From: Parcubacteria bacterium C7867-001
GTDB lineage: Bacteria > Patescibacteriota > Minisyncoccia > Phycocordibacterales > Phycocordibacteraceae
DNA length: 64,000 bases
Assembly (NCBI GenBank): GCA_001189095.1
Contig: LFCK01000002.1
Location: forward strand, 65,937 to 129,936
Reading direction: 5' to 3'
Positions 8,320 through 20,584 of the stretch are shown here, in pieces. A model generated the notes under the pieces. That model ran no database searches. It was not told where the DNA came from and saw nothing but the letters and a program-made list of their open reading frames with translations. Every line of letters begins with the position of its first letter. Positions within the stretch are counted from its first letter, which is position 1. The position numbers and the translations under genes are program-made.

Positions 8320-9681
8320 CTATACCAACAGTCCGCGGATATCGGAGATCTCTTTCGCGAGCTCCGCATCTTCAATAACTTCACGCTTCACTTTCTCGCA
8401 GGAGTGAATAACGGTAGTGTGGTCGCGCCCACCAAGCTTGCTACCAATAGTTGGATACGAAACTGAAAAGTCCTCACGGAGAAGGTACATAATGACTTGG
8501 CGTGGGCGCACTACCTCCCTTCTACGAGTCTTCTCGTAGATACTTTCCTCATCGATACCGTAGAACTCAGCAACTTTAGAGACCACATGCTTAACCGATA
8601 CTGTTTTTGTTGGGCGTGAGAAGGTTCTGAGTGACTGACGTACCTCAGCAAGATCAGGAGGGATCCCCTTTACTTGCGTATGGCAGACAACGCTATTAAT
8701 CACACCCTCAAGCTCACGAATAGAGCCTGAAACTGAGGTCGCGATGTATTCAATAACCGAATCATCAAGGTGGATGCCATGATGAGCGGCCTTTTTACGG
8801 ACAATAGCGATACGTGATTCCGTGTCTGGCTCGCCGATATCGACGGTCATACCACTCGAGAAGCGGCCACGAAGGCGATCGGCGATATCAGGAATAGCCT
8901 GCGGAGGACGATCTGAGGAGAAAATAATCTGCTTATTGTTGTCGTGAAGCGAATTGAAAAGGTGGAAGAGTTCTTCCTGTGTTTTTTCGCGCTTAGTGAG
9001 GAATTGCACATCGTCCATGATCAAAAGATCGTACTGGCGGTATTTTTCCTTGAAACGATTTGCCGTACCGGCCTGAATCGAGTCGGTATAGTCGTTTCCA
9101 AAACGCTCCGAGGTGAGATAGAACACTTTTCGGTTCGGATACATTTTCTTGAAATGGTTTCCTATTGCCTGAATGAGGTGCGTCTTCCCTCTTCCCGTCT
9201 CTCCATAGATGAAAAGCGGGTTGTAGGTGATTCCGGGGCGCTTTATGGCCGCCTGAGCCGCAGTGTGCGCGAGCTCATTGAAAGCACCGATGACGAAGGT
9301 GTCGAAGGTGTAGCGAGGGTTAAGATTGTCACTTTTGTTTATGTAGAACTCATCGAGCGGAAGTTCAGTATTCGGCCTATCGCGGCGTACTTCCTTAGGT
9401 TTTCGGCGGTCGTCTTTAACGATGAGGTACTCAATATTTCGATACTCAAACGAAACTCCACGAATAATTTTGAGGAGGAGGGTGTGAAATTTCTTCTGGT
9501 ACCAGTCGCGGAAGAATTGGCTTGGTACGCCAACGTACACAATGCCGTCCTCTATCTTCACAATGGAGCTCTCTCTGAACCATGTGTTGAAATTTGCTGG
9601 AGAAATGGATAATTCGACCTGCGTCAGCACGTACTCCCACAACTCACGAGGATCGGATTTATTCATGACAGATTCGAGCAT
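8320..9681 (-). CDS. dnaA: Chromosomal replication initiator DnaA
   Basis: Walker [14 protein letters not shown]+ domain III and a C-terminal DNA-binding domain IV. The start is placed at [10 protein letters not shown]. Confidence 0.93.
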
Positions 9682-9761
9682 TATACGCTTCCCTTCTGAA
9701 GCGGGTAAGTGCCGCTTTTTCTTGCAGAACGGTGGAGAACCTGTTAGTATCCTGTGGATAT

Positions 9762-9899
9762 ATGCCAAAGCGAACCTACCAGCCAAAAAAGCGAAAACGA
9801 GCAAAGACTCACGGTTTCCGTACGCGCAGCAAGACGGCGAACGGTAAGAACGTGCTCCGCCGACGCCGCCGAAAAGGCCGCGCCAGCCTTACGGTCTAG
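9762..9899 (+). CDS. rpmH: 50S ribosomal protein L34
   Basis: Read by eye (45 aa): [45 protein letters not shown]. This is the canonical L34 sequence, positioned upstream of rnpA. Confidence 0.9.
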
Positions 9900-10240: not shown

Positions 10241-10981
10241 ATGATTGAATTTTTCCATCAGTTTCTTTACGTTCCGATCTACAACCTCCTCGTGTTTCTC
10301 GTCGGGATCATGCCGGGAGGGGATATTGGCCTCTCGGTCATTGTGGCGACGCTTATCGTAAAAATAATCATCATGCCGCTCTCGCTTGCGGCTGTCCGTA
10401 CGCAGAAGATGATGAAAATCATCGAGCCGAAGGTTAAGAAAATCCAAGAAGAGCTTAAGGACGATAAGGAGAAACAGGCGCGTGAACTTTTTGCCGTCTA
10501 TAAAAAATACAAAATAAAGCCGCTCGCGAGCTTCCTTACGCTCCTCATCCAGATTCCAATACTTATTTCGCTTTATTGGGTGTTTAGCACCGAAATTCTT
10601 CCGCAGGCTGACCTTTCCCTCCTCTACTCCTTCGTGCATCTCCCTGCGTCCGCCTCCCCGCTCTTCCTCGGTCTTTTCCCTGTTGCCGCATCGAGCATCG
10701 CTCTCGCTCTTATCGCAGGTCTCTCGCAGCTTGTTCAGGCGTACGTCGCTATTCCGCTCCCCCCTGCCCCAAGCAAAGATGCAGCTGCCTCAATGCAGGC
10801 TGAATTTGGCCGCGCTCTCGCTCTTCAAGCTCGCTTCATCATCCCGATTCTTATCGGTGTTGTTGCCTATACCTCTGGCGCAATCGCACTTTATTTCATC
10901 ACCAGCAATATCGTGATGCTCTTACAGGAATTCATCGTTCGCCAAGGAAAACTTCCCGAGCTCGCTGAAGAGGATCGCTAA
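10241..10981 (+). CDS. yidC: Membrane protein insertase YidC/Oxa1 (short monoderm-type)
   Basis: 246 aa with 5 TM helices and no large periplasmic domain. Positioned after rnpA. Confidence 0.85.
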   Translation: MIEFFHQFLYVPIYNLLVFLVGIMPGGDIGLSVIVATLIVKIIIMPLSLAAVRTQKMMKIIEPKVKKIQEELKDDKEKQARELFAVYKKYKIKPLASFLTLLIQIPILISLYWVFSTEILPQADLSLLYSFVHLPASASPLFLGLFPVAASSIALALIAGLSQLVQAYVAIPLPPAPSKDAAASMQAEFGRALALQARFIIPILIGVVAYTSGAIALYFITSNIVMLLQEFIVRQGKLPELAEEDR

Positions 10982-12237
10982 AGGTCGAATGCGTAGAGCG
11001 AGCTGTCTCGCTTATTCATGAACACGAGAATGTCCGCTTTCGGATCTAAGGTAAGGTTTTGTACATCAATATCGGTTCCCGTGACATTCGATGGGTCGAT
11101 GGTAAGTACTGCAAGACGAGAAACAAGATCTATCTTCCAGATACGGTCTGCAAAGCGGACGGCACCCTGATACCAATCGTCAGGAAGCGTTCCGGAAATT
11201 TTCTTTGGAACGGCGCAAAAGACATTTGTTTCGTCAGGAGACCAAACGCACTTTTCCGCAAAGGTAGGGGTTGGAAGCGCGGTTATGGTGCGTGTTGCGA
11301 CCGAAAGAACTGCAAGGCGCGGAGTTCCTCCATCAGTGTAGGAAAATAGTACCGATTTGCCCGAAGGACTCGGAAGGGTTGCGAGGCCTGAGAGTGGACC
11401 GAGGAGACGTGAGAAGTTTCCCGAGGCATCAACGAGGAAGGAATAGCCCGGAACACCGGAAGAAGCTTTCGTTGTCGCAACAAAGGTCTTTCCTGCGAAT
11501 CGGACCGAAAGAGAGGAAAGGACGGAGGAGAAGGCTGTTTTAACATTCGAACCGTCTGAACGGGCAGTTGTTCCTATTGAGCCAGAAGAGTTTTTTACGA
11601 GTGAAAATACGGTACTCGACGCACTTGTGGTCACTTCATCGAGATCGCGCTCGAGGAAATACCCCCCTTCCCCGTTTGCCGGAAGCGCGTAAGTCTCAAT
11701 ATGTTCATCGCCCGCGTCGTCCTTCGAAAGGTACTGCGTAAATGCGAGTGAGCCATCAGCGACCCACGCAGCCGTTTGTATCCCCGGAACTGTTTTGTTT
11801 GAAAGGCGGGTCGAGGCGTCGGCATGGAATTTGTAGGAATACACGTTACCGCTCGCGCGGTCGATGTAGCGAATGTCAGTGTCGTCGGTCGGCGCGAGAG
11901 TTCCGGCTGGTGTTGAGGTTGAGGTGGTCGCTGTCTGCCCCGCCTTCGGCGCTGGAACGTATACTGCAGCGAAACCAGCAACGACCGGCGCAGCCGTTAC
12001 TTGTATAAAGCGAGCGGAGAGCTTCTTCCCTGCTCCCTGCGAAATAATGCCCGTGTCCGTATTCCCATTAGTGTTCCCTCCCGTAACATCGTTACTTCCC
12101 GTATTTCCGAACGGATTCTCTCCACCGGTTGTGAGAGTCGGCGAAGAAGGAGCGAAGAAGATGAAATACACCGCAGCAAGTACGCCGAGTCCGACGACAA
12201 TGCTTGCGACAATGATGAGGATACGACGTGTGTTCAT
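10978..12237 (-). CDS. Exported hypothetical protein, possibly beta-propeller-like; last gene of the type IV secretion-like operon
   Basis: N-terminal TM/signal anchor, a Gly/Thr-rich linker and a repetitive beta-rich C-terminus. 4-nt overlap with the upstream gene. Confidence 0.5.
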   Translation of the reverse strand: MNTRRILIIVASIVVGLGVLAAVYFIFFAPSSPTLTTGGENPFGNTGSNDVTGGNTNGNTDTGIISQGAGKKLSARFIQVTAAPVVAGFAAVYVPAPKAGQTATTSTSTPAGTLAPTDDTDIRYIDRASGNVYSYKFHADASTRLSNKTVPGIQTAAWVADGSLAFTQYLSKDDAGDEHIETYALPANGEGGYFLERDLDEVTTSASSTVFSLVKNSSGSIGTTARSDGSNVKTAFSSVLSSLSVRFAGKTFVATTKASSGVPGYSFLVDASGNFSRLLGPLSGLATLPSPSGKSVLFSYTDGGTPRLAVLSVATRTITALPTPTFAEKCVWSPDETNVFCAVPKKISGTLPDDWYQGAVRFADRIWKIDLVSRLAVLTIDPSNVTGTDIDVQNLTLDPKADILVFMNKRDSSLYAFDL

Positions 12238-12239
12238 AG

Positions 12240-13160
12240 TTACTTAACCATACCTGGTGTGACTGTCGTCTCGGAGAATCCGGTCGAGTAGTCACACGCT
12301 GGTGCTGGGAGCTCAACGGTATGAGCGCCTATGGCTTTTTCTCCGACCACAGCGCATCCCTGAAGGGTTTTTATAGGACTATCGGTGCTTGCGCCGTGTT
12401 TCGTATCTGCGTTGCAGTAAGCAGCTAGCTGCGCAGAGGTAACTCCGCCATTTTTCGGAGCAACATATACGTGCTGGAAGAATCCGGACGCACAACCACC
12501 GGTTTTTGATTTATCAAACTCTGCATAGCCGGCCCAAATAACACTTCCAAGTTGGGACGCAACCCACTTCTTAGTAGCCGGCGGTATTTTTTCGCAGTAC
12601 TCGCCAGTAGTACTAAAGACAAGCTCTTCGGTATCAGGATCGCAGACAGGAGTGTCGCCAGCAGGCTCACCACCCTCATCGGCCGGTGTTGTGTCCGTTG
12701 GTGTATCTCCACCACCTGTTCCCCCGTCTCCACCAGCCGGCTTACCGTCCCCTGTTTTCGGGCCTCCATCTCCTGTTCCCGAGACAATAGGCGCAAGGTC
12801 GAGTTTAAGATCGAGAATTCGGGGGTCTATGACACTAAATACAATGGTCGGTGCGAGCACGATAAGGAGACCGAAAATCGACCATCCAATGAGGCTGCGT
12901 GCCTCTTTCTTCTCGGTAATCGAGTCGGGACCGAGATACATGATGCCTGCGCGCATGATCTGGAGAACCGCGAGGGCGGCAGCGATACCGATGCAAATTT
13001 TGTAGAGCGAGTTGAAGAACGGCGCGAAACCTTGGCTGCCCGCATTCACGACTTCCTTGAACGCAGGAATCTGCGTGAGCGGGGTGAAGGTCGCCTCATT
13101 CGCAGCAAAGACGCCGAGCGGAAGAATGAGGAACGCGAGAATGAAAAGAAGAGTTCGCAT
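12240..13160 (-). CDS. VirB2/TrbC-like pilin fused to a Gly/Pro-rich linker and a Cys-rich C-terminal domain
   Basis: Signal peptide plus two hydrophobic helices (IGIAAALAVLQIMRAGIMYLG ... IGWSIFGLLIVLAPTIVF), typical of T4SS pilins. Then a GDGGPKTGDG linker and a ~150-aa domain with 8 Cys. Confidence 0.5.
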   Translation of the reverse strand: MRTLLFILAFLILPLGVFAANEATFTPLTQIPAFKEVVNAGSQGFAPFFNSLYKICIGIAAALAVLQIMRAGIMYLGPDSITEKKEARSLIGWSIFGLLIVLAPTIVFSVIDPRILDLKLDLAPIVSGTGDGGPKTGDGKPAGGDGGTGGGDTPTDTTPADEGGEPAGDTPVCDPDTEELVFSTTGEYCEKIPPATKKWVASQLGSVIWAGYAEFDKSKTGGCASGFFQHVYVAPKNGGVTSAQLAAYCNADTKHGASTDSPIKTLQGCAVVGEKAIGAHTVELPAPACDYSTGFSETTVTPGMVK

Positions 13161-13162
13161 GG

Positions 13163-14128
13163 TTATAGTCCAAATATACCAAGCGGTTTCGCTGCGCCGA
13201 AGGTCACCGGAAGGTTTTGTGAGGCGCTCTGGATGGTTGCTGAGTGAGTTGCCGTGACGCCGATGGTTGCTGAACCAGCGCCGTTTCCGGTCGGTCGCAC
13301 GGTGAGGTCCTTCTCTCCCCCGCTTGCAACGCTATTCACTACCCACGCGATGGTTGGGATGCTCGGGAAGAAGTACGGAACGACGCGAAACGTTTCTTCA
13401 GAGTCGGTCATCGCTACGGTTCCGAAAAGTGCAGTGTTGAAATCAGGACCAAGGAGCGGATCGTTCTTATAAATGCGCAGGAGCGGCACTGCGGGGGCGA
13501 TGGCGAGCTGTGCCCCTCCGACGAGCGACTGATCAGGTGTTACGATAGTGACCGAAACAATTGCATCTCGGTAGCGCACCGGCGCAGTCACCGAAAGAGC
13601 TGAGCGCCCAATGCCCGACTCGGCCATGAGATTTTGATCCCCCACCTTCCACTGATAGGAAAGCGTTGTTGGGTCGATTCGTTTCCCTCCTGTTGTACGG
13701 AAATCGGCCAGCGCTATGAGGCGGATGCGTGATTCGCTCGTAATCGAGCCCGTACCGAGGTAGAGAGGGTGGACGGTGGTTGAAGGTTCAACCACCAGAG
13801 AGACGTCTTGTGGGGTGAGAACGATCTTTTTCGTATAGGTAGCTCCATTTATGGTTGCAGCTACTGAAATGGGGGTGGCCTCGCCTACTCCGCCAAGGGT
13901 GACTGAAATCGGTTCGGTGCCAGTCGTGATGGCGACCTCCTTCCCTCCTACGGTTGTGGTGATGCGAGCGAGCTCAAGCGGGATCTGGGTACTTTCGGGG
14001 GTTAGAGAAATGGTCGAGTATGGCGCAAAGAACCGCGGACTTACAGAAAGGTCGAATTCATTCGCTGCATGAGCAGGAAAAGCCGTTACGAGGAGAGTAA
14101 GGGCGACAAGAAATAGCGGAACGCGCAT
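13163..14128 (-). CDS. Secreted hypothetical protein (T4SS-like operon)
   Basis: Clear signal peptide MRVPLFLVALTLLVTAFPAHA. Beta-rich mature part. Confidence 0.5.
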   Translation of the reverse strand: MRVPLFLVALTLLVTAFPAHAANEFDLSVSPRFFAPYSTISLTPESTQIPLELARITTTVGGKEVAITTGTEPISVTLGGVGEATPISVAATINGATYTKKIVLTPQDVSLVVEPSTTVHPLYLGTGSITSESRIRLIALADFRTTGGKRIDPTTLSYQWKVGDQNLMAESGIGRSALSVTAPVRYRDAIVSVTIVTPDQSLVGGAQLAIAPAVPLLRIYKNDPLLGPDFNTALFGTVAMTDSEETFRVVPYFFPSIPTIAWVVNSVASGGEKDLTVRPTGNGAGSATIGVTATHSATIQSASQNLPVTFGAAKPLGIFGL

Positions 14129-14166
14129 AAGAATAGTATACCGTGCAAAAAAGCGCGTACAGGAAA

Positions 14167-14715
14167 TTACGCAGCTGTTTTTTCGGGTTGGTTTCGGTCA
14201 GGAGTACTTGTTCGTGCGGTTCTTCGCTCTTGAGCTCGCTGGTAGGCGGGAGCGTCCGAAGGGCCTCCTGTTATGACCGCTCTAAGGGCCTCGCGGCGCC
14301 TCTTTGCCGAAGTTGCAAGTGAAATTGTGTCAGCAAAGCTTTTCGGCATTATTCCTGCGTCTTCGAGACGTACGAAGAAAATGGTCGAAGCGACACCGAA
14401 GGTAATCGCAGGAATCATATCAACAAACGGTATGAGTTCGAGAAGTGCGGTACCACCGATTACGGCCCACTTTACGAGCCCAACCTTGAATACTTCCTTA
14501 CTGGGCGCCTGTTTCTTTCCGAATATGATACTCGGATCGATGAGGGGAAACCAAAGGAGATAAAAGAGGAAATTAGCGATAGCGCCAATGAGGAAGCAGA
14601 CTACTACATCAACAAAGGGGATGAAGGTTGCGAGAAACTGTACTCCGTCGAGCGCTCCCGCAACAGTGAGAAGAAGGTTTCCGGTGAGATTCCCAATCCG
14701 TCTCCGAGTGCTCAT
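14167..14715 (-). CDS. Integral membrane protein, hypothetical (T4SS-like operon)
   Basis: 182 aa with 4 predicted TM helices. Overlaps the virB4 stop by 4 nt. Confidence 0.5.
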   Translation of the reverse strand: MSTRRRIGNLTGNLLLTVAGALDGVQFLATFIPFVDVVVCFLIGAIANFLFYLLWFPLIDPSIIFGKKQAPSKEVFKVGLVKWAVIGGTALLELIPFVDMIPAITFGVASTIFFVRLEDAGIMPKSFADTISLATSAKRRREALRAVITGGPSDAPAYQRAQERRTARTSTPDRNQPEKTAA

Positions 14716-16535
14716 ACCCGCTCAGTACTTTCTTGACGCTGCTTTTCCTTTCTAATAGCGAGGAGCTGAGACGGGTCTGAGGTGATGATCTGGTCTTCGG
14801 TGTAGGAAGCGACGATTTTAATAGCGACGTGCTTAAGGCCCGCGAAGAACAGGCCCTCCCCCACTCCAGACTCAAGGAGAAGGTATTTCTCTTCATCGGT
14901 GAGATTGAAAATATCTTTAAGCACCTCAATCGTGGTCGGCGACTGCTTCAGAAGGAGCTGGATGGAGGAGTTCGTAAGAATCGGCTTGCCGTAGGGAGAG
15001 CGAAGGAAGTCTTCCACGTCCTGCGTAATGGTGGCAACGCCGAGGTAGTACTTGCGGCCGCGTTTCGCGAGGCTGTAGAGGAAAGAGGCGGTGTCTTCTG
15101 ATTTCATCATCCACCACGCCTCATCGATGACGAGAAGGCGCTTCTTGAGCTCGCGGCGGACTGCGTTCCAGATGAAGTGCGTAACGATATACATCGCGAC
15201 AGGTTTCAATTCGTCTTCCATGTCGCGTACGGAGAACACGACGAATTGCTTGTTGATATCGACGTTGGTCGGCTGATTAATGAAGCCCGACCATGTGCCA
15301 TGTGTGTACTTACTGAGGCGTTGCACCAAGGACTGGGAGCCCTCCATGCCTGAAAGCACACTCTCGAAGTCTGAGAGGAGTGGCGGCTCGACGCCCGTAA
15401 AATCAGCATCCCCCGTTATGTCCTTAAGCGCGTATGTTTCTGTGACGGCACGGTCGATGATGGCGTCTTCCTCAGGGGAAAGGCCGCCGAGCATGATGCG
15501 GAAGAGGCCGACAAGAGTGATGATGTTCGAGCGCAGAATGTCTGAAGGATTCTCATCTTGGCGTACGACCGGAAGATCGAATGGGTTGATGTGGTGTTCA
15601 GAGGAAAGCGAGATATTGAAGAGGCGTCCACCAGTGGCTTCCGCAAGGTATTCGTATTCGCGCTCAGGGTCGATGACGATGACATCGGTATCAAACATGA
15701 GCGAACGTAGGATCTCGAGCTTCACCGCATAGGACTTACCAGAACCGGATTTTGCAAAGACGACCGAGTTGTAGTTTTCAAGCGAAAAACGGTCGAAGAG
15801 AATCAATGAAGCATTGTGGCGGTTAATGCCGTAGAGGATGCCGTGATCACTCGTGAGGTCAAAGGAGACGAATGGGAAAATGGAAGAAAGAGGCGAGGAA
15901 TTCATCTTTGAATTTACGGCGAGCTCGTCGTTCGCAAGTGGAAGCGTTGAGCGGAAGCCCTGCTCCTGCTGGAAGAGTGCAGGTTTGGTATAGACGAGCT
16001 TGGCGTCGAGGACGCCGCGGAGCTCCCCTTCTATCTTGTCGAGTTCCTCTTTCGATTCCCCGTAGATGGTTATGTAGAGACCGAGATCAAAAATTTTCTC
16101 CTGCGCCTGCTGGAGGTTGTCCCGCAGACCTTCGAGGTCTTGGTATGCCGTGTCGAGCATTGGGTCGCGCACAAACCCCTTCTCTTCCCGTTCAGATATC
16201 TGGCTCTGCACTTCAGCAGTTTTCTTCTGGAGATTCCTAAGAGCTTGCCCTGTTTCGATGGGATGAACGAAAATGCCGATGTCGAAAACACGCGCAAGGT
16301 TGATGATCGGTGTGAACCAGCTATCGGTGAGGAAGCGCGGGTAGGAAATGGTGTAGAACGTGCGGGACATCTTCTCGCCGAGCTGTAGTTCCTTGGCGCT
16401 GACCTTAAGAGCCGCTGGGGCGATGGTATCTGCAAGGTTAAGCTGCCCTTCTGCATAAATGTCCTTCGGCAAGACCGGCACCACCGTTGCGGTGTCGTCT
16501 TTTTTCTTTCGTGCGAGGAAGTCGAGAAGAGCCAT
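14712..16535 (-). CDS. virB4: VirB4/TrbE/TraC-family type IV secretion ATPase, C-terminal 607-aa part
   Basis: Walker A FAKSGSGKSYAV, Walker B LLVIDEAWWMM and a Gram-positive-type N-domain region YPRFLTDSWF. It is in-frame with the upstream 214-aa ORF, separated only by one TAA. Confidence 0.85.
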   Translation of the reverse strand: MALLDFLARKKKDDTATVVPVLPKDIYAEGQLNLADTIAPAALKVSAKELQLGEKMSRTFYTISYPRFLTDSWFTPIINLARVFDIGIFVHPIETGQALRNLQKKTAEVQSQISEREEKGFVRDPMLDTAYQDLEGLRDNLQQAQEKIFDLGLYITIYGESKEELDKIEGELRGVLDAKLVYTKPALFQQEQGFRSTLPLANDELAVNSKMNSSPLSSIFPFVSFDLTSDHGILYGINRHNASLILFDRFSLENYNSVVFAKSGSGKSYAVKLEILRSLMFDTDVIVIDPEREYEYLAEATGGRLFNISLSSEHHINPFDLPVVRQDENPSDILRSNIITLVGLFRIMLGGLSPEEDAIIDRAVTETYALKDITGDADFTGVEPPLLSDFESVLSGMEGSQSLVQRLSKYTHGTWSGFINQPTNVDINKQFVVFSVRDMEDELKPVAMYIVTHFIWNAVRRELKKRLLVIDEAWWMMKSEDTASFLYSLAKRGRKYYLGVATITQDVEDFLRSPYGKPILTNSSIQLLLKQSPTTIEVLKDIFNLTDEEKYLLLESGVGEGLFFAGLKHVAIKIVASYTEDQIITSDPSQLLAIRKEKQRQESTERV

Positions 16536-16547
16536 AGTTCTTGTATA

Positions 16548-17192
16548 TTACCGTCCTTGTGCGGCACCTGCGATTGGCGCGGACTCGTTTTCGCTCAAAT
16601 TGAACGAGCGATAGAGTAACTCAATGATTTCTTCGGTACCGAGCGGTACGGCGCGAAGACCGGTCGCTGAAATGCCGCCTGCAACGAGTGCCATGCGCTG
16701 CTCGAGCTGGACGCGGTATTCCTCGAAAGAGCCGCTCGTCTCACTTTCACCCGCGGTCTTTTTCTTTCCAAGCATGGGAAGCGAACTCACCATCTCCCCT
16801 GCTATTGCTGGTGAATACGGCACGACGAGATAGAAAACCTTCGTCATGATGTCGCTTCCCTCCATGAAGCTCTGAATGAATTGCACGTACTCACGCACCT
16901 GTATGCGCATAAGTTCCGATTGCTGCGCGTCGAGGCGCTCGTTAAGGAGTGCGAGATACGGTCGAATATCCATTTTGCGCGAGTGCACGACTATCTGTAC
17001 CGAGAAATCGAGCGTATTAAGGAAAGTTTGGAAGCCGCCGATGATGGCGCGCTGCTCGTCTTCTGATTTAAGCGCGAAGTTGAGCGAAGAGCACATGAGG
17101 ATGCCGCGATACCCGCCATCTTTCAAAATGACGACACCATTACGGATTTCCTTAACGGGCACGAACGCTTGTGTTGGTTTTGCGTCAGGCAT
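16548..17192 (-). CDS. VirB4 N-terminal segment-like protein (214 aa), separated from the ATPase ORF by a single in-frame stop
   Basis: Resembles the extreme N-terminus of monoderm VirB4 (PrgJ/TcpF type). Its stop TAA (16548-16550) is in the same frame as the ATG at 16535. Confidence 0.6.
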   Translation of the reverse strand: MPDAKPTQAFVPVKEIRNGVVILKDGGYRGILMCSSLNFALKSEDEQRAIIGGFQTFLNTLDFSVQIVVHSRKMDIRPYLALLNERLDAQQSELMRIQVREYVQFIQSFMEGSDIMTKVFYLVVPYSPAIAGEMVSSLPMLGKKKTAGESETSGSFEEYRVQLEQRMALVAGGISATGLRAVPLGTEEIIELLYRSFNLSENESAPIAGAAQGR

Positions 17193-17194
17193 GA

Positions 17195-17608
17195 TTAGTT
17201 CTGAGACTGCTCGCCCTGATCCTTAATATCGAGTTTCCACGCGAGTTCATGGAGTTTATTTTCGGATAGGTTGGCCCGTGGGCGTACTGGCGCGACAACC
17301 GGAGCTTCTACTTGCTGGGCCCCAGTATCTTTTTCCTTTTTCCAGAGATAGAGACGCTTTCCGACGTAGTAATTGAAGCCGGACTCGAGGATTTCGACGA
17401 AGGTTTTGCCATTCATCTTGAAAAACGCGAGCGCGCCGGCAAAGGCCGCTATCGGCGTTGCGAGGATTATAGCGATAACGAGTGGGAAATAGAGGAGAAT
17501 CGCAATGCAAATGCCTGCGCCACCGGCGAGATAGATGAACTGTTTGAGCGTGAAGGGACCGAAGATCTTGTCTTCGACTTCAATGAACTGCGGTACCTGA
17601 TAATCCAT
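17195..17608 (-). CDS. PrgI/VirB3-like small membrane protein
   Basis: N-terminus MDYQVPQFIEVEDKIFGPFTLKQFIYL followed by two TM helices, the hallmark of the PrgI family. Confidence 0.65.
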   Translation of the reverse strand: MDYQVPQFIEVEDKIFGPFTLKQFIYLAGGAGICIAILLYFPLVIAIILATPIAAFAGALAFFKMNGKTFVEILESGFNYYVGKRLYLWKKEKDTGAQQVEAPVVAPVRPRANLSENKLHELAWKLDIKDQGEQSQN

Positions 17609-17638
17609 CGGTACTAGTATAACCGATGCGTTGTGAAC

Positions 17639-18583
17639 CTACTCAACAGGTTCGCGGTAGGGATCGTTGTTACCAACTCGCGGTGGAGGTGAAGCTGCAG
17701 GACGGCGCGAGATTTCAGAAGGCATGTACGGGCGTGCAAATTGCTGCGGAGGAGCGACCGGTTTTGGAGGAGTTGGTGGTGTCCATGTCTGCTGCGGCTG
17801 GGGAGTTTGAACGGGCGTTGGCGCAACTGGTTGTGCGTGCGGAGCTCCGTGTGACTCTGGAAGCGTAATCATGTGCGGAGCTGGATGCTCCCCTGCCTTA
17901 ATGGCCTTCATATCTTCTGCCATGGTGCGCATGGTTCCGAAGGTTGCTGCAGGCTCATTTTGAGGTGCGGGCGCAGGCTGTTGTTGCATATATATATGTA
18001 CGCTCGGTGCCGGCTGCATCACCTGCGGAGCAGGGGCTGCCTGTTGAGGAGCTGGTTGCATAGGGGTTGATCCCGGCAGAACGATGTTGTTCGGGGCCTG
18101 CGCGACAAATGTCTGAGGTGTAGGCGCGGCTACAGGAACTGGTGTTGGAGTTGACGCGATAGGAGCAGGTGGGACCACAGGAACCCACTTTTGTCCCGCG
18201 GCTTTTTGGGCAGGTGCTGGACGTGCTGCGGGAAGAATTTCTTCTCGGCTCTTTTGTTCGGTTGCCTGTATCTTTTTGAACACCTGCTCGTTTATGTCGT
18301 TTATGACTCCTTGAGTCGTTTGCTCATCGAAACCCTCCTTTCGGAGTTCGTCCATGAACTCTTCAGGAGTCGTGATGCCGAGAAGCATGAAAAGGAAGGC
18401 GTGTTCAAACCCACCCGCTTGATCGGCGTGCATTTTATATTTGCGCATAAGAGCAAGAACAACCTCGTTTCGTCGTGGGCCAACGACGAAATCACGAACG
18501 GCTTTCGGAAGCCCTCCAACCAGCGTTGCGACAGCCTCGTCAATGCTTATTTCGGATTGTGTAGTTGAATTTGTCTGGTCCAT
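17639..18583 (-). CDS. Hypothetical protein with an N-terminal globular domain and a long Pro/Ala/Gln-rich low-complexity tail
   Basis: 314 aa inside the T4SS-like operon. PAPQ-rich repeats. Confidence 0.5.
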   Translation of the reverse strand: MDQTNSTTQSEISIDEAVATLVGGLPKAVRDFVVGPRRNEVVLALMRKYKMHADQAGGFEHAFLFMLLGITTPEEFMDELRKEGFDEQTTQGVINDINEQVFKKIQATEQKSREEILPAARPAPAQKAAGQKWVPVVPPAPIASTPTPVPVAAPTPQTFVAQAPNNIVLPGSTPMQPAPQQAAPAPQVMQPAPSVHIYMQQQPAPAPQNEPAATFGTMRTMAEDMKAIKAGEHPAPHMITLPESHGAPHAQPVAPTPVQTPQPQQTWTPPTPPKPVAPPQQFARPYMPSEISRRPAASPPPRVGNNDPYREPVE

Positions 18584-18586
18584 ACG

Positions 18587-20584
18587 TTAGTGACCTCCCG
18601 CGGGCTTTGCGCCACCTCCCCCACCAGATTTGCCTCCACCCCCACCCGAATTACCACCTCCGCCACCTCCCCCACCAGGGATTTTCCCAATAGCATCGAC
18701 AAGGCGATCGTTGTCAGTCTTACTTATGTCCTTAAGTATCTTTGCTGCAGCCTCATGGTTAGCGTGCTTATCAACCGAGGGCCAAGAAATTCCTTGAGTC
18801 TCAATTCTTTGTGCATAGGCACGCTTACCTGTGTTCTTGTCGACTGTCTTGAGTTCTTCGGTGAGGTTCTCAATAGCTTCTTTTGTATTGCGGAGGTCCA
18901 CATCCTTCTGAGCCTCTTTTGCAGCCATCTGCGTTTGGAGCTTCTGGACGTCTCCCGTCTTTCCAGCTGCTTGAGCTGTTTGGATGTCTTTTGCAAGCTG
19001 TACGCGCTCATTTTGCCACTTCTTATTTATCTCTTTTTCTTGAGCCTCTAGAACACTCTTCTGAGACTTGAGAGTTTTCTCCTGTGCTTTTTCTTCTTCA
19101 GTTTGCGTAAGTTTATTTGCATACTCAACTCGCGCCTTTACTGCGGCTTCCTCAACACCATGAATGCCATGCGATGCATCCTTTCCAGCTTTTCCTAAAT
19201 CAAGACCTGACTGCCCGGAAACGAATTTCCCAACACTTCCTGCACGTGCATCAAAACTCGAAGTCGCACCTTTATTGAGCACTCCATAGGTGAAACGTCC
19301 AAACCTCGAACGTCCGAAGCTAGACGAAGCGACTCGGTTAGCAAGCATTGAAGATCCAGCACCAATAGTGCGGCGACCAACAAAGCCCATGCCGCCAAGA
19401 GCAAATCCGCCACCAATCTTAGTCGCTGTTTCTGCGCCGTACGCGCCAATTTGCTTCGCCATTATCAAGGAACCGATCATGAAGCCAATCATCAGGAAGA
19501 AGATAACGAACACTCCCATGAAATTTGCCTGACCAGTTGTAATTGCGTCCAAAATGGTTCCGCTACCTCCGAGGACCGTTTGCAATGAATCGCTTATCTT
19601 CAGGCTCACGAAAATAAGTATGAGGAATACCGGCGCAAAGAATGACTGATTGATGAGTGCGTGCCACCAATCATTCGCCTGTTTATTCAGAAATGGAAGC
19701 GCCATGCCCGCGAAGCCTATCGGCGCGAGCACCATGAGAAGGACCAGCACGACGGCGCGGATGAGAAGCATAATCGTTCCTGCAAAGAGCACCATCGCGG
19801 TACAGAGCACGAATATAGAGAGGCCGATGTAGACAACTGCGACCTCAAAGAATCCACCAGCCGGAACGGCGTTTGGGGTAGCAAGGAATCCTGCGATACC
19901 CGTCGACTGGAGGATCCTGCCGCTGATGCCAGATTTTATGCACTCATCACTCACAACCTTCCCCGAGCATACGTCTCCCCCAGAGGCTTGCGTGTAGACA
20001 GCTGAGCTCAAGGCGTTTGACGTGTCTATTATGGCTTCGGCAACGAATAGGCTGAAGTTAAGAAGAAGCGCGAAGATGATAAGCATCGGAAGCGTCTTCT
20101 TCGCGTTGTAGTCGTGGAGATTGAGGATGATGCCAACGCCGGTGAAGATGAATCCAAAGAGAAGCAAGATGTTTCCAAGGTCGCGAAGTATCTGCCATGC
20201 AGCTATCACTCCCGGAGAGTTGCCAAAAAGGTTTGGGAAACCGAATACGAGGTACACCATCGCCAAGTTGAAAAAGTACCCTGCCATGGCGAGCAGCCAG
20301 TTCGCGAGCGTAAGCACAAGCATGCCGATACCGGTCGCAAAACATCCGCCGAAGTCAAAATGTCCACCAAGAAGATCGCAGGCGCCTCCAGATGTTTTCG
20401 GTTTGTCGGCAGCAGGACCAGCTACGTCGGGGACGTTTGTGGTTTCGGATACACCAACCCCCGGACCCGCTCCCGGCGCGGCAAAGGTTGTTGTTGGGAA
20501 AAAAGAAAGTGCGGCAAGGAGAAAGGTGCCGATTATGAGTGTGCGAAAGATGTATCCCGAACGGATCATGGCGCGCTCGCGCAA
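18587..20584 (-). CDS. VirB6/TrbL-like polytopic membrane protein with a C-terminal coiled coil and Gly-rich tail
   Basis: ~8 TM helices in the central region, a signal-like N-terminus, a charged coiled-coil C-domain and a terminal GGGGGGGNSGGGGGKSGGGGG tract. Confidence 0.65.
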   Translation of the reverse strand: MRERAMIRSGYIFRTLIIGTFLLAALSFFPTTTFAAPGAGPGVGVSETTNVPDVAGPAADKPKTSGGACDLLGGHFDFGGCFATGIGMLVLTLANWLLAMAGYFFNLAMVYLVFGFPNLFGNSPGVIAAWQILRDLGNILLLFGFIFTGVGIILNLHDYNAKKTLPMLIIFALLLNFSLFVAEAIIDTSNALSSAVYTQASGGDVCSGKVVSDECIKSGISGRILQSTGIAGFLATPNAVPAGGFFEVAVVYIGLSIFVLCTAMVLFAGTIMLLIRAVVLVLLMVLAPIGFAGMALPFLNKQANDWWHALINQSFFAPVFLILIFVSLKISDSLQTVLGGSGTILDAITTGQANFMGVFVIFFLMIGFMIGSLIMAKQIGAYGAETATKIGGGFALGGMGFVGRRTIGAGSSMLANRVASSSFGRSRFGRFTYGVLNKGATSSFDARAGSVGKFVSGQSGLDLGKAGKDASHGIHGVEEAAVKARVEYANKLTQTEEEKAQEKTLKSQKSVLEAQEKEINKKWQNERVQLAKDIQTAQAAGKTGDVQKLQTQMAAKEAQKDVDLRNTKEAIENLTEELKTVDKNTGKRAYAQRIETQGISWPSVDKHANHEAAAKILKDISKTDNDRLVDAIGKIPGGGGGGGGNSGGGGGKSGGGGGAKPAGGH

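Follow-up and report, generated by a model that had tools for sequence, protein, structure and literature searches.

TrsD, a remote homolog of the VirB4 N-terminus, is the commonest component of the type IV secretion systems (T4SSs) of Patescibacteria and is usually encoded beside virB4 (Quinonero-Coronel et al. 2025, Microb Genom, PMC12102498). In that study, 2,272 TrsD homologs were counted in the phylum, 1,664 of which were associated with virB4, and the T4SS locus was often located near the replication origin. The same work lists the TrsD homolog of Candidatus (Ca.) Southlakia epibionticum as essential, and T4SS genes were found to be essential for the epibiotic lifestyle in the one species tested. 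Outside Patescibacteria, TrsD is confined to the pGO1 subclass of MPF_FATA (PMC12102498); the statement that TrsD and VirB4 are homologous rests on this source, and TrsD is not named in the main text of Guglielmini et al. 2014 (PMC4027160). The two-gene arrangement of trsD and virB4 in Patescibacteria is already published. Here we analyzed a stretch of 64,000 nucleotides (nt) from Parcubacteria bacterium C7867-001 (assembly GCA_001189095.1, contig LFCK01000002.1, positions 65,937 to 129,936 of the forward strand; hereafter the window), in which a virB4 gene had originally been predicted to be interrupted by a single in-frame TAA. Our results refute this framing: the stop is a gene boundary that is conserved across relatives, and the VirB4 of this locus is very probably a genuine and conserved two-polypeptide form composed of a TrsD-like protein and a short VirB4.

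Re-translation of the window confirmed the coordinates and arithmetic of the original prediction. The TAA of an open reading frame (ORF) of 214 amino acids (aa) occupies 16550..16548 and the ATG of a 607-aa ORF occupies 16535..16533, both on the minus strand. The two ORFs lie in one frame, four sense codons (YTRT) apart, and a single-frame translation over the junction reads AAQGR, stop, YTRTMALLDF. The features at the junction are as follows.

17192..16548, minus strand: trsD-like gene, 214 aa plus TAA stop (ORF list, profiles and fold)
16547..16536, minus strand: 12-nt intergenic spacer TATACAAGAACT (TAT ACA AGA ACT, translated YTRT; sequence)
16535..14712, minus strand: short virB4 gene, 607 aa plus TGA stop (ORF list and profiles)

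Comparison with described systems

The closest described system is the TrsD and VirB4 pair of Patescibacteria (PMC12102498), which belongs to the same phylum and likewise has a TrsD homolog of about 210 aa encoded beside virB4. A PrgI/VirB3 gene and proximity to the origin are common to both. We see no substantive difference between the two, since spacers of many kinds occur in the family and the 12-nt in-frame one is among them. The locus is thus one more example of the published Patescibacteria T4SS arrangement.

The same order is found in the staphylococcal conjugative plasmids pSK41 and pGO1 of the MPF_FATA subclass, in which TrsD/TraD is followed by TrsE/TraE, the VirB4 protein. In pSK41, a 135-aa gene that takes the place of VirB3 by position precedes trsD (227 aa), which is separated by 14 nt from a DUF87/VirB4 gene of 672 aa, matching the order described here. 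Residues 35-574 of the 607-aa protein align with residues 35-617 of pSK41 TraE (expect value (E) 3e-37, 24% identity), and positions 8-201 of the profile built from the 214-aa family, nearly the full length of the 214-aa protein, align with residues 34-217 of pSK41 TrsD at about 17% identity. The break point is common to the two systems, residue 35 of the 607-aa protein corresponding to residue 35 of TraE, and both ATPases start with a hydrophobic stretch followed by a run of lysines (MALLDFLARKKK here, MIMAFLKKKK in pSK41). The systems differ in that pSK41 carries a plasmid-borne DNA conjugation system of Bacillota, whereas the present system is chromosomal and patescibacterial.

Full-length VirB4 proteins, such as TrwK of R388 and the CD1110 family of Bacillota integrative and conjugative elements, have the same domain content as the two pieces taken together. 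The ATPase core of R388 TrwK and of structure 4AG5 matches the 607-aa protein, and a VirB4-like fold is recovered in the 214-aa protein. In contrast to these proteins, the N-terminal domain is here divided between two polypeptides; a single chain was found in only one of the 150 best representatives of the upstream family (P0207, described below).

The two gene products

The 607-aa protein comprises the distal part of the VirB4 N-terminal domain and a complete ATPase domain, with the Walker A (AKSGSGKS) and Walker B (LLVIDEA) motifs intact in its translation. It matches P-loop_TraG in Pfam at 87.3 bits (cut-off 25.8), together with AAA_10 and DUF87, as well as the CD1110-family VirB4 model NF045971 of NCBIfam at 379.2 bits (cut-off 325), and the VirB4 C-terminal domain structure PDB 4AG5 at E 1e-44. 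ATP hydrolysis and assembly of a hexamer with VirB3 and VirB8 are predicted for it as a member of the VirB4 family. Its residues 30-571 correspond to positions 183-733 of the CD1110-family profile, which is 752 positions long. The original prediction had raised the question of whether this product alone keeps the canonical N-domain; as the alignment begins at position 183 of 752, the domain on this chain is incomplete, and without the 214-aa protein the first ~180 profile positions of VirB4 are missing.

Of these, positions 2-119 are supplied by the 214-aa protein, whose residues 8-124 correspond to them in the CD1110-family profile; positions 103-233 of the Mbov_0397 VirB4 profile also match it. 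Since the alignment of the 607-aa protein begins only at CD1110 position 183, the two pieces are collinear with one VirB4, and the original view that together they make up a full-length VirB4 stands. The VirB4 relationship was also recovered at the level of predicted structure. Using the AlphaFold2 model of the 214-aa protein as the query of a fold search, the top 14 PDB matches were all TrwK/VirB4 chains of the R388 T4SS (probability at least 0.99), and the matches below them were unrelated proteins with probabilities of no more than 0.63. Searching PDB chains with the 214-aa sequence returned nothing, VirB4 being recovered only by the fold search. The gene context is likewise that of the family: a stand-alone gene of ~200-230 aa, 3' of a VirB3-like gene and 5' of a short VirB4, is found here, in pSK41 and in 79 relatives. 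Profiles, predicted fold and gene order identify the 214-aa protein as a counterpart, made as a separate chain, of the VirB4 N-terminal domain over its first ~200 residues, and the upstream gene is best named TrsD-like (VirB4 N-domain module).

Pfam sources conflict for this protein. The identical protein P0001 and all 120 listed homologs carry the precomputed Pfam assignment PF26593 (TraC-like), whereas a local hmmscan of the 214-aa protein against Pfam-A gave no match, even at E of up to 10.

Homologs of the 214-aa protein are overwhelmingly separate proteins. Of its 3,741 homologs, the 120 closest (69-100% identity) all fall within a length of 207-227 aa. An exhaustive search among 1.84 billion representatives yielded 2,543 relatives, and the protein was stand-alone in 149 of the 150 best representatives (35-97% identity). 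For the detection of fusions, the 37 representatives of at least 260 aa were compared with the 607-aa protein. In 36 of them the additional length bore no resemblance to the ATPase and consisted of a low-complexity tail, an N-terminal extension or a short C-terminal addition. The sole fusion, both among these 37 and among the 150 best representatives, was P0207, a 797-aa protein encoded at L081:544-2937 (GCA_964615945.1, contig CAZTUR010000004.1) with PrgI upstream and dnaA nearby. Its N-domain runs straight into the equivalent of residue ~35 of the 607-aa protein, and the MALLDF head is missing. This fused protein could be a re-fusion or could represent the ancestral state. No close relative with an uninterrupted virB4 gene was found among the closest 120 homologs or the 79 loci described below.

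The TrsD-like proteins of other Patescibacteria lineages carry a C-terminal low-complexity tail rich in Pro, Gln, Thr and Glu, with up to ~230 extra residues (P0142, P0181, P0192, P0208, P0212 and about 25 more). The possibility that homologs of 280-443 aa are fusions truncated at contig ends was rejected, as these have low-complexity tails without similarity to the ATPase.

The junction in related genomes

We collected 80 loci with a 13-sequence alignment, each from a different species-level genome and all belonging to one family (64-78% identity); both pieces could be analyzed in 79 of them. The comparison of orthologous loci that the original prediction had proposed thus revealed the same conserved split in 79/79 loci, in agreement with its option of a genuine two-polypeptide VirB4 and with the first half of the condition that it had named as refuting an interruption. 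The stop codon of the upstream gene is TAA in 66 loci, TAG in 11 and TGA in 2. The spacer ranges from -32 to 142 nt: 1 nt in 13 loci, 2 nt in 15, 3 nt in 33, 4-19 nt in 13, 55-142 nt in 4, and -32 nt in a single locus, so that 61 of the 79 spacers measure 1-3 nt. Apart from a T before the ATG, no conservation of the spacer was observed in these loci. The downstream gene starts in nearly all loci with ATG followed by ALLDF. Relative to the upstream gene, the downstream gene is in frame 0 in 39 loci, in frame +1 in 19 and in frame +2 in 21.

The nearest distinct relative, from another sample (DRR274965), shares 84% DNA identity and has a TAG stop and a 13-nt spacer, which places the genes out of frame. 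Against this relative, the ratio of nonsynonymous to synonymous substitution rates (dN/dS) was 0.016 for the upstream piece and 0.008 for the downstream piece (first 154 codons), with dS of about 1.1, indicating that both halves are under strong purifying selection.

Within the operon of the window, the lengths of the successive junctions are 3, 30, 2, 12, -4, 38, 2 and 2 nt, the 12-nt value being the junction studied here. Three of these eight junctions are in frame, and at two of the three the adjoining genes encode unrelated proteins; with a prior expectation of one in three, the in-frame state is not above chance. The junction between the trsD-like gene and virB4 is an ordinary tight operon junction, and the shared reading frame is incidental, an accident of the 12-nt spacer. 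The finding is of use chiefly for annotation: neither genome pipelines nor readers should take this junction for a frameshift or an interruption in VirB4.

Four relatives (L018, L039, L060 and L069) have long spacers of 55-142 nt. The spacers of L018, L060 and L069 open with an ATG only a few bases from the stop (TAATGGTATGAGTATG, TAATATGAGTATG and TGATATGAAG, respectively). An insertion seems to have pushed the original start aside, with a new MALLDF start lying downstream; these spacers could also hold a tiny ORF. The titles of some loci look taxonomically inconsistent: L015 (JBLNCF010000007.1) is labelled 'Bacillota bacterium' and many CAY*/CAZ* contigs 'uncultured Candidatus Saccharibacteria', and yet they carry an ortholog of 65-76% identity beside relatives that bear the names Paceibacterota or Parcubacteria. 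Loose or wrong labelling of bins is the probable reason.

Alternative explanations

The original prediction had offered a recent nonsense mutation, a sequencing error and stop-codon readthrough alongside two genuine polypeptides. That a mutation recently turned an intact virB4 into a pseudogene would fit the observation that the pieces sum to a full-length VirB4 and that one fused relative exists. A pseudogene would be expected to evolve under relaxed selection and to have an intact counterpart in close relatives; instead, all 79 species-level relatives and thousands of homologs share the split, dN/dS is very low for both pieces at a dS of about 1.1, the downstream piece has its own conserved start and head, and both Walker motifs are intact. 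We regard this explanation as having a negligible chance of being correct. An error that produced a false stop is no more credible. The source is a metagenome-assembled genome, in which single-base errors do occur, but the Logan assembly of run SRR2043728, which may share reads with the deposited genome, matches the window with 100% identity over 3,880 bp spanning the junction, TAA and spacer included, and a stop stands at the boundary in every relative, these coming from other samples and assemblers. Programmed readthrough of the TAA, giving a full-length VirB4 of ~825 aa either alone or beside the two separate products, draws on the facts that the ORFs share a frame four codons apart and that frame 0 is the commonest state among relatives (39/79). 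Readthrough would require the downstream frame to be kept, and in 40 of the 79 relatives, among them the nearest with its 13-nt spacer, the second gene is out of frame and the pieces cannot be joined. Neither the identity of the stop nor the sequence of the spacer or other 3' context is conserved across the 79 loci, and the natural fusion P0207 contains neither the YTRT spacer nor the head of the downstream piece. In addition, the stop used here, TAA, is the least leaky stop codon. We consider readthrough very unlikely.

Several observations weigh against a two-gene VirB4 of TrsD-like protein and short ATPase. The 214-aa protein matches the TrsD/TraD family model NF041427 only weakly (E 2.9e-4, 20.7 bits, cut-off 200), and an hhalign comparison of a 43-sequence profile of this protein with pSK41 TrsD is also weak (E 1.1e-4, probability 56%, 173 aligned columns). 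The AlphaFold2 model has a moderate predicted local distance difference test (pLDDT) score of 72.8, and the template modelling (TM) scores of its TrwK/VirB4 matches are a moderate 0.40-0.44. Frame 0 is over-represented among the relatives (39/79, binomial p = 0.002), and the 79 loci are phylogenetically non-independent. Finally, the separate translation of the pieces and their physical re-association are steps that we infer. The frame-0 excess was considered as a hint of readthrough and rejected: it is due entirely to the 33 loci with a 3-nt spacer, the remaining spacers being in frame in only 6 of 46 loci, and within this operon the unrelated genes for the proteins of 665 and 314 aa likewise lie 3 nt apart (TAACGTATG).

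A different kind of alternative accepts both genes as real and holds that the TrsD-like protein is now an independent accessory or regulatory factor that retains only the ancestral fold. In line with it, many homologs have acquired long tails of low complexity, which add as many as ~230 residues. On the other side, the gene adjoins virB4 in all 79 informative loci of the family, both genes are under strong purifying selection, the fused relative shows that both parts can work as one chain, and the downstream protein alone lacks the beginning of the VirB4 N-domain. This explanation appears improbable to us, though it deserves more weight than readthrough.

Translation and assembly of the two proteins

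In a two-gene VirB4, the trsD-like gene and virB4 would be co-transcribed within a tightly packed chromosomal T4SS operon, with the TAA as the normal end of the first gene and the second gene translated separately. Shine-Dalgarno motifs were not enriched upstream of the genes of the window (4/48 genes versus a background of 9.6%), so that this signal speaks neither for nor against the independent ribosome-binding sites that formed the second half of the original refuting condition. By contrast with its 12% background, a TANNNT -10-like hexamer (often GGTATAMT) was found 5-25 nt 5' of 18 of 57 starts in the window, a pattern in the DNA which suggests that many transcripts in this Parcubacteria genome may have short leaders or none. 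The TAA and the 12-nt spacer together (GGTAATAT) form a weak element of this -10-like type, resembling GGTATACT 5' of neighbouring genes. Because there is no Shine-Dalgarno signal in the genome, virB4 would be translated either by re-initiation or coupling after the stop of the trsD-like gene or from a short-leader transcript. Given that most spacers in the relatives (61/79) are 1-3 nt long, the simplest reading is coupling by termination and reinitiation; a short-leader internal transcript for virB4 is possible as judged from the -10-like element.

According to a review (PMC12857230), the N-domains of VirB4 connect protomers to one another, insert into the membrane and touch VirB3 and VirB8. 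On the basis of this role, the TrsD-like protein would supply the part of the VirB4 N-domain that contacts VirB3 and VirB8, and the two proteins would re-associate non-covalently at the membrane. How a VirB4 assembles with its N-domain on two chains is a fair structural question, although not one particular to this window.

The short VirB4 opens with seven residues, MALLDFL, whose conservation over the 79 loci is 81-100%; a lysine-rich run comes next. This head is missing from the fused P0207, and the start of pSK41 TraE, MIMAFLKKKK, is similar to it. The head may serve split VirB4s specifically, as a motif for docking or for the membrane. It is tempting to go further and propose that the split is functionally exploited and not merely tolerated, with the MALLDFL-lysine head docking or anchoring the ATPase such that the TrsD-like module assembles with it reversibly, the N-domain being regulated or sub-stoichiometric, and with the break point reflecting common descent with the pGO1/pSK41 subclass. 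We offer this proposal tentatively and think it rather unlikely to hold.

Operon and genome context

The T4SS cluster extends over 10978-20584 on the minus strand, and its other features, together with the replication genes beyond it, are listed below.

17195..17608, minus strand: PrgI/VirB3-like small membrane protein gene, 137 aa (Pfam PrgI, 40.9 bits, cut-off 27)
18587..20584, minus strand: hydrophobic 665-aa protein with a poly-Gly tail, first gene of the packed cluster (ORF; VirB6-type candidate by position only)
12240..13160, minus strand: secreted or membrane protein of 306 aa with a weak VirB2/TrbC pilin-like N-terminal region (Pfam TrbC, 20.5 bits with a cut-off of 27.9, E 5.5e-4)
8320-9804, minus strand: dnaA
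7007-8164, minus strand: dnaN

The PrgI gene ends 2 nt before the trsD-like gene (junction TAATCATG). The cluster ends (10978) about 1.2 kb short of dnaA and dnaN, which places it close to the replication origin. The 665-aa protein ends in the poly-Gly sequence GGGGGGGNSGGGGGKSGGGGG and is followed by a Pro/Gln/Ala-rich protein of 314 aa (region 17639-20584, minus strand). A Pfam scan gave no match for either protein, and they may be VirB6-like and cell-wall-spanning components of the T4SS.

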